Source of the DNA: a virus
Taxonomy: Duplodnaviria; Heunggongvirae; Uroviricota; Caudoviricetes
Reading direction: 5' to 3' (one strand)
IMG/VR virus record: IMGVR_UViG_2851933302_000004
Length of the DNA: 40,715 nucleotides
Program-made: the position numbers and the translations under genes
In this document: piece by piece, positions 2,697 to 34,774 of the stretch
Layout of the letters: each line of letters starts with the position of its first letter
Position numbering within the stretch: position 1 is the stretch's first letter
Notes under the pieces: model-generated
Seen by the model: the letters and a program-made list of their open reading frames with translations, nothing else
The model's database searches: none
Told to the model about the DNA's origin: nothing

Positions 2697-3087
2697 CGTC
2701 TTTTCTCCCCGGAATTAACTCGCGTGGATTATCGGAACGGTGATAGAGCCATATACCAATACGCACAGCGACAATTGCTGACACGAATGCGCCTGCAGAG
2801 AAAACAATCCCTTTTTCAAAAGAGTCCTGCGTGATGGTAGGGATCAGGCTGGCTATGCCGATAAGAATTGATGCTGCTGGTTTGTAAAAGAGAAGGCCGC
2901 AAAGAAAGCTGAGCATCGACAGGAGCACCCGGCGACGGATGGGGTACTCTACTGCAGAGGTAACAAAAATTACCGCCCCAGCCAAAGCCCCTAAAGCAAC
3001 CTCCGGAGGGACACCTGCAATAACTGCAGCAAGAGAACCAAAACTAAGCAACTGATTTAATTGCTCACTTGTTACTTGAGCAGACAT
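2683..3087 (-). CDS. Holin-like multi-pass membrane protein, first gene of lysis cassette
   Basis: 134 aa, several TM segments, charged C-terminal tail; position immediately upstream of endolysin. Confidence 0.55.
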   Translation of the reverse strand: MSAQVTSEQLNQLLSFGSLAAVIAGVPPEVALGALAGAVIFVTSAVEYPIRRRVLLSMLSFLCGLLFYKPAASILIGIASLIPTITQDSFEKGIVFSAGAFVSAIVAVRIGIWLYHRSDNPRELIPGRKDDGNA

Positions 3088-3368
3088 ACTTTCTCCTGTT
3101 TACTATCTATAAGCCAGTCAATTATTGATGACTAAACCCGCATAGTAAACCATATATGAATCATTATTGTTCCATATCATATATCTCAATAAAAGTACTA
3201 ATGATTTTACAGAACGAGCCAGCAGAGTGGGGGCAGTTGTACAGGAACCATAGACTTAATTTTGTATTTAATAATGCTATGGTGTAATAAACCTGAACAT
3301 GTATTTAAAATACGTACTGATTCATGATAGAATTCAAAGATAACTTTTCACCAACTCCGTTTTTGATA

Positions 3369-3395
3369 CCCGCAATATTTTGCGGGCTTTTTTTT
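3369..3395 (+). terminator. Hairpin plus T8 tract overlapping the tailspike stop codon; efficient only in plus orientation
   Basis: CCCGCAA-TATT-TTGCGGG followed by TTTTTTTT. Confidence 0.4.
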
Positions 3396-6300
3396 AACGT
3401 TCTTCCAGAGACTGAACCCGCTCTTTTATCTTATCCATTTCTCTGCGCTGCCATGCTGCCTCGATATAGAATAAGAGATCAGGTCTGACCCCCCATCTAG
3501 ATCCTGCTGGCGTTATTTCAACGCGCTCAATGATGTCTTCTATTACCATCACTGGATTATCATCCTCATCAACAATGATGCTCCCGTCATTATCAGTCAG
3601 CGGCATTTCCCTTTGGCCAGTAATGACGTCATCATATACTGCGGGATAATCGTCATAGCAAAGAAAGGCATAGCGGCATGTTGTGCTTTCTTCTTCCATG
3701 AGTCCGTGAGAAATAAGAACATCACGAAGTTGCTGCGCGATTACACCATGATGTATCCTCGCCCCTTCTTCCCCCTTTATAGCGACAGCGTTCAGCCATT
3801 TATAAGCGATATACCTGACGTCACCCCAGGCATCCAGCAATGCTTCGTCAGGAGAGACCGGCTCTGTCTTTAATGTTCCGTCACTGGTAACCACAGGATT
3901 GGAGCCAAGATAAACTGTCGAGAACCTGTTTCCCGGACCACCAAGAGCATTTACATTATCAAGATAAGGTTTAACATCTCCGTTCTCAAAAAGATGTTCG
4001 AGTGCGTTATATACCGCGCGACGTGGAGTACTGCTTCCGGAACCATGCAACGTTATCATTGCACCATCTGCTGAAGACGTTGTTTCACCGCCGCTAACGA
4101 TTAATCTCTGAGCGGTAACATCATCAGACGGTACTTTCTTCGCAATAATGGCGTAATTACCCTCAAGTTTGACTTCCGCGCGAACTTGTCCTGATGTACC
4201 TGCATGGACAGTCAGTGACTGGACGGCAACATCATCTGTGAAATCAACGGGTACAGGAACCGTCCTCACGCCTGACGTCGACATAAAAGTAGGAAGCGTT
4301 CTGTTAGGAGTGGCTCCGTAGACAAAATCCCTTGAAACAAATTCTTCCTGTTTAATTTTCACCCTGAAACAATACAAATCAGCCGGGTGACCATCGTGAA
4401 CATAAGGATATTTTCTGTTGTTATCCCCTATGCTCCATGGGTTTAGAAAGTCTTCCCCACCGAAAATGTAGTACAGCCAGTTGTCTTTGATACAAACTGA
4501 ACCAACACCAACCGCAGAGTTAACTATTCCGCCCTGATAAATCTGATCAGTAACATTAACCCACTCTACATTATCCAGACTCCACTCATTGACGTTAACT
4601 CTGGTCATAAATGTTCTTGGATAATTTCCTGCATAACGGTTATCAGGTTCTCCTCCTTCCCACTCACCAAATGCGCGCTCACTGCCAAAAATAATCAGCT
4701 CATCGCCAACTTTGGCAAAAGGAAGGTTTGAGTGATGAACATTATTTGGGAAGCGAAGAGAATTCCATGATGTACCTAAATCAGAGCTTCTGTGCAATGA
4801 ACTACCGGGTTGAGTACTTAATGTCCCCCTGGTCGTCAGATACAGAATGCCATCATAATATTTTACACATGGCTCAGATGCATTCGCCTCATATTCTGCA
4901 GGTATGCGTCTGCGAACAAAGCTACCAGGAGAACCGAAAGCATCAGAGAAATAGAGTATCCCAAGCTCGCGTGGACCAATATCACCATTATGGTAGCCAA
5001 CAGCAAAACTGTTATCGCTAATCGTCGCAAAACTGTGAATCTCAGTAACAGGAGTGCTTCCGTCAACAAAAGAAGGAATAGTTCCAAGACTGGTTTTTCT
5101 CCATGGTGACGAGTGAAATGATGTACCAAAACTCCAGTATCTACCCTCGTTATTCTGATCCACATCCTGGGTATTTTGCGTCGTAACTGTAAAAGTATTT
5201 TTATCAATAACAGTAGTCACCGTCATATTCCCGGTAACACCTGTAACACCAGAGTTTGAGAAGTTGACAAAATCACCAGCAAATAATCCGTGATCAGTAA
5301 TGCGAATATAAGCGACTTGCTGATTTGCTGCTTTCGTTATACCACCATAAACGCGAAGGCTGCGACTCATTGGGCGATCCCACAACTCTGCAACCTGCAG
5401 TTTATTTCCGCTCACGGTCCGCGTCTCAATTACAGCAAAAAGGCGATTTCTGACAACCCCCATACTCATGCAGTGATAGTTAACTGTGGGATAGTTTTCA
5501 TGTAAATCTGTAAGCCATTCCGGCGTTGTCCAGGTCTTCCCGTCATCTCCTGAGCGAACCCATGCAACATGGAGGTTATTTACACCATGGCGGTCTCCAG
5601 CCATAAAAGGCGCATAGATGACATTGTCATATACAAACGTTTTATCCTGCGTCCAGGCGTTGTACCACGGTGTATCTGTAATTTTAAATAACTCTCCCTG
5701 GATAAAATCTTCAGAAGCATAAAAAAGAGGCTGGCCCGGTATTCTCTCAAATAAAAAACGAGCATTTTTAAATCGACTGACATCCGGAAGAGTTGATACT
5801 TTAAAAGTAAGCCCTAATCCGTCAATTTTATAACCTGGAGATGAGGCTTCAAGGCACGCGCTTATTGCAGTGGAATCGTCATTTATACCATCACCAACAG
5901 CTCCAAAATCTTTGGGGCTAATAGCATCACGCATTTTATCCTGGAACGTTCGGTACACAGCCCCAGAACCATACTGAATAAACCAACCAAAACCACCAAC
6001 AACCCCGGAGATTGCAGCATCGACATAATTACGCATTGAGCGATTATTTACAGCGTCCTGCTCAAATGATGGATCTGCAAGGTTAGAAATTTTGTTTTGC
6101 TTTGCATCGTAATATTTTGCAAGCAAAGATGGTTTCATCAATGCACGTCTGAACCACCCAAAACATTGCTGGATCAGCATCGTCAGGTAGTCAAAGGCAT
6201 CTTCATGCACTTCGGGGAAAAATTTTCCCTGATTGCGAAGGTCTGTCTCCTGCACTACATCAAGCACACGATCTATCGTAATTCGCCATCCAGTAGCAAG

Positions 6301-31954: not shown

Positions 31955-32015
31955 CTTTACCCTCGCTTATCCACATAACTTATTGATTACATTGATAACT
32001 AAAAAGATCGTCGAT

Positions 32016-32480: not shown

Positions 32481-33281
32481 TTACTTGATAAATCCTGACG
32501 CCTTTCCCCGCCTGTATTCCTCCATCAGCCACTGCGCCGGTGTTATTCCCCCAAGGGTGGCGGCGTTAGGCATGCACCCGAAACTTCGCCCTGGTGGATG
32601 GTAAACGTCTCTCCCTGTGTCCGGAGGCGTACTCATGGGTTCTGGCTTTGCCTGTATGCTGATCACCGGATCGGGTATCTGCTGTCCGGAAGCCACCTTT
32701 TTCGCCCAATCATCGAGCAGCCTGCGCGCGTGTTTCTCAACCTCAATCTCGCTAAGCTGGCGCTGATACATTGCACGGCGGGTATCACATACGACCCAGT
32801 ACATAACCGGATGTCGCCACGGGAATCTTTCGGGACCACCAGGATATAAACTTTTTTCCTTGCTGTACCGGTGAAACTCCGCCATCACATCGTCAATGGT
32901 GACGCCAAGAACCATCTTGCTGTCTTTACACCACTTGATGAATTGCCCTGGCGACGGCCAGAACGGAGACTCACTGGCGCGGGCGTGGCGCATACCAGCA
33001 GAAACCTGTTCACGGGTTCGGATCCCCCCTTCGGCAAACGCAGCAATCCACTGCTGTTTTGCAGCAACTTCCTGCTCTGGCGTCTTCAGGTTGGTTACCA
33101 CTGCCGCCGGAAACAGTTGTTTCAGCTGTTTGAAAAGGGCATCAACAAGCCTCTCTGCTGACATGTTCACCACGTTGTCATTGTTGGTGTACTGATGCTC
33201 ATAACCTGACATGCGAGAAAGGGCTTCTCCGTCACGGTTTTGTATCGCGGTAAAAACGTTGTTCACAAGAAATCCTCCCAT
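32481..33281 (-). CDS. Replication protein P-like (replicative helicase loader)
   Basis: 266 aa; strong similarity to recalled lambda P (LFPAAVV..QQWIAAFAEGGIRTREQV..PFWPSPGQFIKWC). Confidence 0.8.
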   Translation of the reverse strand: MGGFLVNNVFTAIQNRDGEALSRMSGYEHQYTNNDNVVNMSAERLVDALFKQLKQLFPAAVVTNLKTPEQEVAAKQQWIAAFAEGGIRTREQVSAGMRHARASESPFWPSPGQFIKWCKDSKMVLGVTIDDVMAEFHRYSKEKSLYPGGPERFPWRHPVMYWVVCDTRRAMYQRQLSEIEVEKHARRLLDDWAKKVASGQQIPDPVISIQAKPEPMSTPPDTGRDVYHPPGRSFGCMPNAATLGGITPAQWLMEEYRRGKASGFIK

Positions 33282-34078
33282 GCTTCAGGGCTGTTCCAGT
33301 GCGGAACGTTGTTATCAGGTAATGTTGATTGCTTCTGTCTGCTAATCTGCAGCCGCCTTGCCAGCTTCTGCTCCCACTGTGCCTGATGGTATGCCTTACC
33401 CTCAGCCATCCAGTAAATTCTGAACTCTGCAAGTTCCTGTGCCGTTGGCAGACTGTCCAGGCAGATCCCCTGCAATGAGCTTTTCCGAAGAAAGTCATCT
33501 GATGGCTGCCATTGTTCATGCATGACAAATTTGCCTAATTGCCCTGGCCCACCAGGAGGAACAAAGTTATTCATCACGGCGTTGTTTGCGCCGGGGTCAT
33601 GATGCACAGAATCCCCGTTTTTTGTCCTGCTCTCCCTCTCTTGGTTAAATGACTGGTTATATGACTGGTTCTGGATCCCGTTTTTGGGATCATTCAACAT
33701 CCCGTTTTTGGGATCATTCAACATCCCGTTTTTGGGTATATTCCCGTTTTCGGTAACATTACCGTTTTCGGGTTCATTGCCCCCCTCTCGGTTGCCTTTA
33801 ATGTTCCCGTTTTTGGTTATATTAAGAGAGAAAACCCGCACTCTTTTTGTCGCTCCCTTTCTCTCCCCGGTATCTGAAATAAGCCCCATTTTCATGAGCG
33901 ATATAAGTCCGGCCTGCACGGTTTTTTTATTCAGGCAAGTGTCTTTAACGAGGCGTTCTATGCTGGGGTAGCAGAGGTTATATTCATCGGCTCTGTCAGC
34001 CATCGAGAGCAGTATGAGCTTTAATGACGAGCTACCTGGATCTGTCTCCCAGGCCCAATCTGTTGCATGTCTGCTCAT
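33263..34078 (-). CDS. Replication initiator, lambda O-like, with origin iterons inside the gene
   Basis: 271 aa; N-terminal HTH-like region, central Asn/Gly repeat (PKNGMLND x2) encoded by iterons, C-terminal domain; directly upstream of P-like gene. Confidence 0.7.
   Translation of the reverse strand: MSRHATDWAWETDPGSSSLKLILLSMADRADEYNLCYPSIERLVKDTCLNKKTVQAGLISLMKMGLISDTGERKGATKRVRVFSLNITKNGNIKGNREGGNEPENGNVTENGNIPKNGMLNDPKNGMLNDPKNGIQNQSYNQSFNQERESRTKNGDSVHHDPGANNAVMNNFVPPGGPGQLGKFVMHEQWQPSDDFLRKSSLQGICLDSLPTAQELAEFRIYWMAEGKAYHQAQWEQKLARRLQISRQKQSTLPDNNVPHWNSPEAWEDFL
33677..33824. repeat. Origin-like iteron array: two perfect 24-bp tandem repeats plus about four degenerate copies of CCCGTTTT(T/C)GG
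   Basis: CCCGTTTTTGGGATCATTCAACAT at 33677..33700 and 33701..33724, then degenerate copies through 33824. Confidence 0.7.
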
Positions 34079-34093
34079 GATTAATCTCCGCTA

Positions 34094-34294
34094 TCAGCTT
34101 GAATGTTGTGGGGAGGAATTAATCATGATCTGCTTAATCTCTGCCCTGATACGACGGTTTGATTCCATGGTGCACTCAACACAGTGTCCGTTGTAAACCC
34201 AGCGTTCACTGTCATGTCCGTGCTTACATGTTTTTCCGGTGTAGTAGCGTTTAAGTCCGCGCTTTGCGGCATCAATACGTGTAATGATTTCCAT
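34094..34294 (-). CDS. Small zinc-finger protein in the cII position
   Basis: ORF trimmed to ATG 34294; CKHGH..CVEC cluster; between Cro-like and O genes. Confidence 0.4.
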   Translation of the reverse strand: MEIITRIDAAKRGLKRYYTGKTCKHGHDSERWVYNGHCVECTMESNRRIRAEIKQIMINSSPQHSS

Positions 34295-34374
34295 GGTAAG
34301 CCCTGTTATTAGTATTGGGATTACGGTCATTTTGTGCTGACACAAAAAAAAGATCAACCAGATTTGGTTTTTTA

Positions 34375-34389
34375 TTACCTTTGAGGTAC
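34375..34389. promoter_or_regulatory. Operator-like palindrome (copy 7, one half-site mismatch)
   Basis: TTACCTTTGAGGTAC followed by GAATAGATAT also seen next to copy 1. Confidence 0.35.
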
Positions 34390-34444
34390 GAATAGATATG
34401 AAAAGACCGCCGGATGGCGGTCTACAGAGGGTTGTGGCTGGATA

Positions 34445-34675: not shown

Positions 34676-34711
34676 AGCTATTGCCTGATATTTATTTCAG
34701 ATAATAAATAT

Positions 34712-34774
34712 TCACCCATAAGGTAACAAAAATCAAGGATAGTTACCTGTGGGGTGCATTTACCTGTTGGGTAA
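34712..34774. promoter_or_regulatory. Immunity-region operator cluster: three TTACC-N5-GGTAA-type sites in the repressor/cro divergent region
   Basis: TCACCCATAAGGTAA (34712..34726), TTACCTGTGGGGTGC (34743..34757, weak), TTACCTGTTGGGTAA (34760..34774). Confidence 0.55.

Follow-up and report, generated by a model that had tools for sequence, protein, structure and literature searches.

In the window (the whole stretch of DNA that was analysed; 40.7 kb), the gene for a 271-aa initiator protein on the minus strand (33263..34078) carries six direct repeats, which are under selection as DNA, are placed in the linker between two folded domains of the encoded protein, and are inherited together with its DNA-binding domain. 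Judging from the sequence, these six repeats and the 12-mers next to them are most probably the iterons of the prophage's vegetative replication origin, bound by the winged helix of the prophage's own initiator. The probable origin of the phiV10/epsilon15-like prophages is hereby placed at a defined stretch of 190 bp. In the open-access literature, we found neither a published description of this origin or motif nor an experimental demonstration, for this group of phages, of binding or of origin activity.

The repeat array and the initiator gene

The search with Tandem Repeats Finder gave a 24-nt unit (ATCCCGTTTTTGGGATCATTCAAC; 2.6 copies, 100% match) at 33675-33736 with the top score of the window (124) and an 18-nt array at 33724-33778 that overlaps it. 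By the repeat search, six direct-repeat copies were located, starting at 33675, 33699, 33723, 33741, 33759, and 33804 (spacing: 24, 24, 18, 18, and 45 nt); the copies at 33675 and 33699, which together take up 33675-33722, were identical, and the remaining four were 67-75% identical to these. Two perfect 24-bp tandem repeats plus about four degenerate copies had been noticed in the original prediction at 33677-33824; this composition was confirmed, and the coordinates agreed within 2-3 nt. The core common to all six copies was CCGTTTTYGG (10 nt), which had six matches in the window, every one in the array (expected from shuffles: 0.18; six cores were reached in 0 of 100 shuffles). The six cores span 33678-33816 and the array spans approximately 33675-33827, wholly inside the initiator ORF, where the repeats encode aa 86-135.

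The putative iterons, all on the minus strand, were numbered from the promoter-proximal end: iteron 1 (33804..33824; coding-strand core CCAAAAACGG at 33807-33816), the degenerate iterons 2 (33759..33779; core CCGAAAACGG at 33762-33771; more polymorphic in near relatives) and 3 (33741..33761; core CCGAAAACGG at 33744-33753), iteron 4 (33723..33743; GAATATACCCAAAAACGGGAT), and iterons 5 (33699..33719) and 6 (33675..33695), both of which are GAATGATCCCAAAAACGGGAT and lie in a perfect 24-mer. Iteron 5 has the dyad arms ATCCC/GGGAT on either side of AAAAAC and lies within the least polymorphic stretch of the gene. Iteron 6 is the last before two tandem 12-mers (33642..33665, minus strand; GTCATATAACCA GTCATTTAACCA on the coding strand, i.e., AACCAGTCAt(a/t)t; Tandem Repeats Finder), which are directly downstream of it, the coding strand reading ...AACCAGTCATAT AACCAGTCATTT AACC.... 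A purine-rich tract (33607..33641, minus strand; 80% purine on the coding strand) holds a degenerate iteron-like copy (ACAAAAAACGGGGAT). Note that this degenerate, putative seventh iteron (33611-33625) was not counted, because one core position (ORF nt 461) was polymorphic (A/C/G) among 67 near-identical alleles. An in-frame A_AAA_AAC slippery site at 33611-33625 was also rejected, the sequence being not conserved (a position varies A/C/G among the same alleles).

The 271-aa protein was assigned to phrog_1032 ('replication initiation protein'; PHROGs, E = 7e-108) and is built from a winged helix at the N-terminus and a DnaT-like domain at the C-terminus, joined by a disordered linker. The winged-helix (HTH_36) domain, which presumably binds the iterons, corresponds to codons 1-85 (33824..34078, minus strand; Pfam HTH_36 at aa 18-67), and the DnaT-like ssDNA-binding domain to codons 184-252 (33323..33529, minus strand; Pfam PF17948, E = 8e-16). 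In the AlphaFold model, for which 22 homologues were used, aa 1-85 formed a single, confident winged helix, aa 91-180 had pLDDT below 50, and aa 181-252 formed a helical bundle; by this model, the repeats fall exactly in the stretch, predicted to be disordered, that links the two folded domains. The C-terminal domain superposed on DnaT crystal structures (TM 0.91-0.93, ~50% identity over 70 residues), and the PDB entries 6aep, 4ou6, and 9zbt were matched both by sequence and by fold. The fold search with the N-terminal domain gave generic winged-helix matches only (the plasmid initiators 5kbj and 4pt7 were weak matches; E ~0.1).

The neighbouring gene (32481..33281, minus strand), which overlaps the initiator stop codon region by 19 nt, encodes a lambda-P-like helicase loader (Pfam Phage_lambda_P PF06992, E = 1.5e-56; phrog_109), 31% identical to lambda P (E = 9e-36). 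This region of the window shares 98% identity with Escherichia phage phiV10 and related phages (genus Uetakevirus, epsilon15-like) and 100% with prophages of E. coli chromosomes, a match being present in 540 of 5426 complete genomes (~10%). Both here and in phiV10, the repressor gene is on the plus strand and the rest is on the minus strand, in the order of cro-like gene, terminator, small ORF, initiator, P-like loader, and DUF1064 gene; the gene context is that of a lambda-like replication module. In the phiV10 annotation, the initiator is a 'putative primosomal protein' and the next gene a 'putative replication protein P'; the GenBank/RefSeq labels of the initiator are 'primosomal protein' or 'DnaT-like ssDNA-binding domain-containing protein', and one RefSeq record has 'replication initiation protein'. 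A promoter-like site of the early operon (34701..34729, minus strand) was picked up by a consensus scan at a level not above chance, and the phiV10 annotation has the same layout; from this site, the early operon reads through the cro-like gene, the terminator (34404-34423), and the initiator gene. As for GC skew, the cumulative minimum (~33-35 kb) was rejected as origin evidence; it adds nothing, because it falls where the orientation of the genes changes from the minus to the plus strand.

The adjoining 12-mers, the distribution of the core, and the N-terminal domain

A protein search was performed with the N-terminal 157 residues (526 homologues; implied copy numbers, 2-7), and the DNA was read directly for 36 genomic loci taken from one-per-species genomes. 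The core CC[AG]AAAACGG was found in 21 of these loci, 1-6 times each, at 240-560 nt into the ORF. The 21 loci belong to Enterobacterales, Vibrio, Pseudoalteromonas, Acinetobacter, Marinobacterium, Desulfovibrio, and Burkholderiaceae (the Desulfovibrio and Burkholderiaceae loci are from MAGs), and the loci with the core include those of Superficieibacter, Phaseolibacter, Proteus, Providencia, Alkalimonas, Arsenophonus, and Wohlfahrtiimonas. The tracts (the 320-nt zone after the winged helix in the 21 loci; 6.7 kb) contained 73 core matches, and the DNA outside the tracts (248 kb, both strands) contained three, all of which come from Arsenophonus and sit in an additional, tandem copy of the gene there.

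The 12-mers are likewise found in relatives. In phiV10, there are three copies, and in most of the 21 distant loci the last iteron is followed by two to four GAACC-type repeats with 10-14 nt spacing. The spacing was 10 nt in the Burkholderiaceae MAG and 13 and 12 nt in Marinobacterium; therefore, the GAACC-type repeats are not frame-bound. They account for the conserved peptide 'QNQSLEPVIEP'. We propose that the 12-mers may serve as a melting/opening element or as an ssDNA-contact element. No AT-rich tract adjoins the array, where the lowest-GC downstream 40-mer has 40% GC vs 20% in lambda; A-rich tracts were present after the iterons in the Vibrio (L009) and Pseudoalteromonas (L012) relatives. 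No DnaA box was found near the array, and the sole perfect box in the window (31967-31975) is within chance.

Among close relatives (80 viral contigs, 95-100% protein identity), the number of cores ranged from 4 to 8 and that of the 12-mers from 1 to 3. When the 67 distinct 816-nt alleles were compared, ORF nt 345-450, i.e., the three distal iterons and the 12-mers, had two polymorphic sites vs 13.4 expected (P = 8e-5), and the 12-mer stretch was nearly invariant; variation was seen in the pair of degenerate iterons in the middle and in the putative seventh copy. In lambda, the iterons beside the melting region matter most (PMC7466680), and the low variation in the distal iterons and the 12-mers is consistent with this pattern. 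When the alleles are set beside the Stx-phage footprints (PMC7466680), constraint appears to be strongest, in both, at the sites closest to the melting region.

The repeats, even if bound by the initiator, could be mainly regulatory (autorepression, titration/handcuffing, or incompatibility/exclusion), with opening taking place elsewhere, e.g., in the AT-rich intergenic region at ~34320-34400. The missing AT-rich tract beside the array is in line with such a role, as is the position of the lowest GC of the region (27.5%) ~600 nt upstream, at 34340-34399; moreover, plasmid iterons also serve copy-number control (PMC4980987). However, the AT-rich stretch at 34.3 kb contains the terminator, the conserved GAACC 12-mers abut the last iteron, as expected of a melting element, and an 8.46-kb circular element (candidate plasmid) has cores only inside the gene. 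We consider a mainly regulatory role unlikely and take the array and the 12-mers together as the probable origin.

The repeats were also compared with the domains of the protein. In the alignment of 22 homologues, the N-terminal domain and the 'PKNGxLNxPKNG' tract were kept, and the C-terminal half was DnaT-like or unrelated; in the phages TL-2011b and Tyrion, the DnaT-like C-terminus was kept with other N-termini and without these repeats. The C-terminus is swapped while the N-terminus and the repeats are retained; therefore, the repeats travel with the DNA-binding domain. More distant N-terminal homologues have different repeats at the same place, mostly dyad-symmetric around an A-rich centre: AACAGTCCCAACAACGGAAC (Acinetobacter), AACCAGTCGGAAAAATCCGAC (Sphingobium), CCAGTGCCAAAAGTGGCAC (Zoogloeaceae), CTAGTGCCCAAAGAGGCAC (Desulfovibrio), and ACCAGTCGGTAAATGCCGAC (Methylotenera), GGGGCAGGAGCTGCCC being another dyad-symmetric repeat of this group. 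In the HTH_36-type 'O' of the Min27-type Stx2 phages, GGGGTGGGGCAGGAGCTGCCC occurs three times. The differences in the repeats are matched in part by the form of the winged helix, the wing of which is short or long.

These data bear on the question of which protein would bind the sites. The core is near-identical across very different hosts, which could suggest a conserved partner, i.e., a host factor or another phage protein instead of the product of the gene that carries the repeats. Against this, the core is unlike the DnaA box, it changes as the N-terminal domain diverges further, and it is missing where phages that are otherwise 97% identical have an allele with another N-terminus; we regard another binder as very unlikely, and the initiator itself as the probable one.

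Selection on the nucleotide sequence and dyad symmetry of the repeats

Instances of the core were found in each of the three frames (57, 11, and 11), the encoded peptide being PKNG, QKR(N/D), or PKT(E/V/G). Consecutive copies within one gene were in frames 0, 2, 1, 0, 0 in Vibrio salinus, in frames 2, 1, 0, 0, 0 in Alkalimonas, and in frames 1, 0, 1, 0, 1, 2, 1 in the Desulfovibrio MAG. In the x(K/E)NG peptides, the Lys/Glu codon was A-ending in 61 of 61 cases vs 569 of 835 in the remainder of these genes (p = 2.5e-10), and Asn was AAC in 59 of 61 vs 143 of 324 in the remainder (p = 3e-16); both p-values are optimistic, since repeat copies from a single locus depend on one another. The preceding codon ended in C in 59 of 61. 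This codon pattern is seen even in taxa that share only 40-60% identity in the N-terminal domain. Because the core occurs in three frames and the synonymous sites are fixed, selection, as read from these genomes, acts on the nucleotide sequence of the repeats and not on the peptide. In the array, a protein code and a DNA code clearly overlap. A motif that recurs in several frames while its synonymous sites stay frozen provides a test, from sequence alone, for iterons concealed within genes; by this test, one iteron family is traceable across Proteobacteria.

The repeated Asn-Gly peptide motif, which had been pointed out together with the repeats, is real (the array translates as ITKNG..EPENG.VTENG.IPKNG.DPKNG.DPKNG). 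A tandem repeat at the peptide level only, i.e., an Asn/Gly-rich flexible linker expanded by slippage and having no DNA function, would fit the predicted disordered linker encoded by the tract and the copy number that varies among close relatives; it is contradicted by the 10-nt core kept in three frames with different peptides and by the synonymous positions fixed across distant taxa, dyad symmetry would be meaningless at the protein level, and we find this explanation hardly credible.

The conserved unit, aligned over 76 instances, is ~20 nt long (GAAY-RNW-CCC-AAAAAC-GG-KA). The positions flanking CC...GG covary as complements: 49 of 73 at (-2,+11) vs 34.6 expected, and 42 of 73 at (-3,+12) vs 21.5 expected. 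These values were reached in 0 of 5000 permutations, a statistic inflated by the same dependence among copies within a locus. Examples of the arm pairs are ATCCC/GGGAT, GTACC/GGTAC, GACCC/GGGTC, and CCCCC/GGGGG. Short hairpins in mRNA or ssDNA (e.g., as a priming signal, or in antisense termination or translational pausing) instead of duplex sites would agree with this covariation of the arms and with the adjacent 24-mers scoring as terminator-like hairpins on the antisense strand, but are extremely improbable, as the stems are of 4-5 bp only, conservation is highest in the unpaired AAAAAC centre and in the left flank GAAY, there is no enrichment of G-T/G-U combinations, and hairpins would not explain why the repeats are inherited with a DNA-binding domain. 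The terminator-like hairpins on the antisense strand were rejected as candidates in their own right, being by-products of neighbouring dyads.

Comparison with known systems and a possible course of initiation

An origin inside the initiator gene is textbook knowledge for lambda and the Stx phages, the O protein of which binds the iterons as dimers (PMC7466680). The original prediction likened the array to lambda, with ori inside O; as for the in-gene layout of the iterons and the P-like neighbour, the likeness stands, and as for the AT-rich tract, it fails. The suggested comparison with the lambda ori iterons revealed the same design, a dyad around an A-rich centre: both have ~18-24 bp direct repeats with dyad arms and an A-rich centre (ATCCCTCAAAACGAGGGA in lambda, ATCCCAAAAACGGGAT here). 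In both, the array lies in the initiator gene just past the N-terminal DNA-binding domain, the downstream stretch is purine-rich on the coding strand, and a P-family loader gene comes next. Unlike lambda, which has four iterons, there are six here with 24/18/45 spacing; the 80%-AT tract is absent, with the GAACC 12-mers in its place; and the C-terminal domain is DnaT-like. The name 'O-like' given to the initiator is justified by architecture and not by family: Pfam Phage_rep_O (PF04492) is matched by lambda O and not by the 271-aa protein, which matches HTH_36 and DnaT instead, and the comparison with lambda O was not significant either with BLASTP (E = 0.07) or with hhalign (probability, 7%). 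The lambda analogy rests on architecture, because homology to lambda O was not detected. A link between lambda O and HTH_36 with HHpred has been reported (PMC5509034); it was not reproduced here.

The Stx-phage origins of P27 and 933W have six iterons in the O gene, as here, and the copy number likewise differs between related phages (PMC7466680). Unlike the protein described here, the Stx-phage O proteins are close homologues of lambda O, and the AT-rich tract is kept in these phages (PMC7466680). The departures of the present system from lambda are the different initiator family, the DnaT-like C-terminus, and the GAACC 12-mers; nothing is new in principle, and the understanding of origin function is unchanged by the finding.

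The same two-gene architecture, HTH_36 plus DnaT C-terminal domain with a P-like gene next, is seen in DopC/DopE of Cellvibrionales and Oceanospirillales, in which a chromosomal HTH_36 + DnaT_C protein is encoded beside a P-like protein; Brezellec et al. (PMC5509034) derived the pair from lambdoid O/P genes and reported that dopC lacks iterons and lies away from the origin. Unlike chromosomal dopC, the gene described here is phage-borne, in a phiV10-like prophage, and has six iterons. It looks like the undomesticated viral form from which DopC/DopE-type pairs derive. The reported lack of iterons in dopC fits the interpretation that the iterons are the origin-specific part, and our data are consistent with the published idea that DopC/DopE was domesticated from such phage genes through loss of the iterons. 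As for E. coli DnaT (PDB 4OU6, 6AEP), the C-terminal 70 residues are alike; DnaT itself has no winged-helix iteron-binding domain and has its role in PriA-dependent restart, not at the origin.

With the iteron plasmids (Rep_3/RepA; reviewed in PMC4980987), the system shares a winged-helix initiator, iterons, and adjacent short direct repeats; the latter could serve as an unwinding element in the manner of the 13-mer unwinding repeats of iteron plasmids. Unlike the Rep_3 proteins, which have two winged helices, the initiator has one, and Pfam Rep_3 was not matched. To our knowledge, the known plasmid origins lie outside the rep coding sequence.

If the array is the origin, as we think probable, initiation may proceed as follows. 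On derepression, the early operon would be transcribed through the initiator gene, and dimers of the 271-aa initiator would occupy the ~20-bp dyad sites around the A-tract and form an O-some-like complex. The DNA would then open beside the last iterons, at the 12-mers and the purine-rich stretch, and the DnaT-like C-terminal domain may touch the ssDNA and/or the P-like loader, which would deliver the host DnaB.

A wider generalization, which is speculative and, in our estimation, rather doubtful, is that the HTH_36 initiators define a widespread and separate type of origin, having a near-universal core (CCRAAAACGG) and GAACC-type repeats of 10-14 nt with no AT-rich tract. Opening would occur by sequence-specific ssDNA capture of the GAACC-type repeats (here via the DnaT-like domain), as with DnaA-trios or the 13-mers of the plasmid DUE, and the origin would be written into the disordered linker in whichever frame results.

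Lastly, two small records were noticed in which the genes for CI, Cro, YdaT, an O-like protein, and a P-like protein are found together, namely the above-mentioned 8.46-kb circular record from E. coli and an 8.6-kb linear record from Klebsiella; their O-like genes have 4-5 cores. These records, which are plasmids or assembly products, are suggestive of a candidate lambda-dv-like replicon.

Apparent exchange and recurrence of the repeat-bearing initiator region

In phage TL-2011b and in ZX5 and HEMP4, the flanks were approximately 97% identical to those of the window, whereas the N-terminus of the initiator was unrelated to that of the window initiator. The initiator gene of these phages carries, 209 nt apart, two copies of a different repeat, a 28-nt sequence containing the palindrome GTAACGC...GCGTTAC (in TL-2011b, positions 2267-2294 and 2476-2503 of the fetched locus, L003). 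It looks as if the origin-specificity module has been exchanged.

The gene annotated as 'replication protein O' in Stx2 phages of the Min27 type, such as Stx2a_F403 (locus L121), showed distant similarity in its N-terminus to the HTH_36 domain of the window initiator (28.7% identity, tblastn). Three GGGGTGGGGCAGGAGCTGCCC repeats were found in this gene at the position equivalent to the window iterons (L121 2290-2355), and the GAACC-encoding 'EPVNEP' was located downstream of them. As for Arsenophonus nasoniae (locus L016), two paralogous initiator genes are arranged in tandem (about 1900-2100 and 3001-3744), each carrying both CCAAAAACGG iterons and GAATC/GAACC repeats of its own.

Short plasmid-labelled records

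Two small records filed as plasmids, one from E. coli (L123, NZ_CP148379.1; circular, 8461 bp) and one from Klebsiella (L122, NZ_CP130688.1; linear, 8600 bp), contained a CI/Cro/YdaT/O-like/P-like block as their sole replication genes. The iteron cores (4-5 per record) were all within the O-like gene, with none elsewhere in the record. These records could be lambda-dv-like mini-replicons or else assembly products.

Other features in and around the origin array

On the plus strand of the window, which is antisense, two hairpins (33685-33704 and 33709-33728) with intrinsic-terminator-like scores are formed from adjoining 24-nt iterons, each consisting of GGGAT(N8)ATCCC followed by T5; the iteron dyads probably give rise to them incidentally. 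Within the degenerate seventh iteron copy, the minus strand carries an in-frame -1 slippery heptamer, A_AAA_AAC (33616-33622), with AGGGAG 8 nt upstream and a stop after 8 codons in the -1 frame. A -1 slip here would yield an N-terminal-only initiator product of approximately 160 aa, reminiscent of dnaX. The slippery site was ruled out as a conserved feature, because nt 461 of the initiator ORF was A, C, or G in 26, 15, and 26, respectively, of 67 near-identical alleles.

A single perfect DnaA box (TTATCCACA), a number within chance, occurs in the window; it sits at 31967-31975 in a gap between genes, and 1.7 kb separate it from the iterons. Just upstream of the initiator gene, the replication operon includes a small Cys/His-rich (CKHGHDSERWVYNGHCVEC) ORF (34094-34357, minus strand; phrog_1081), which weakly matched an endonuclease VII family.
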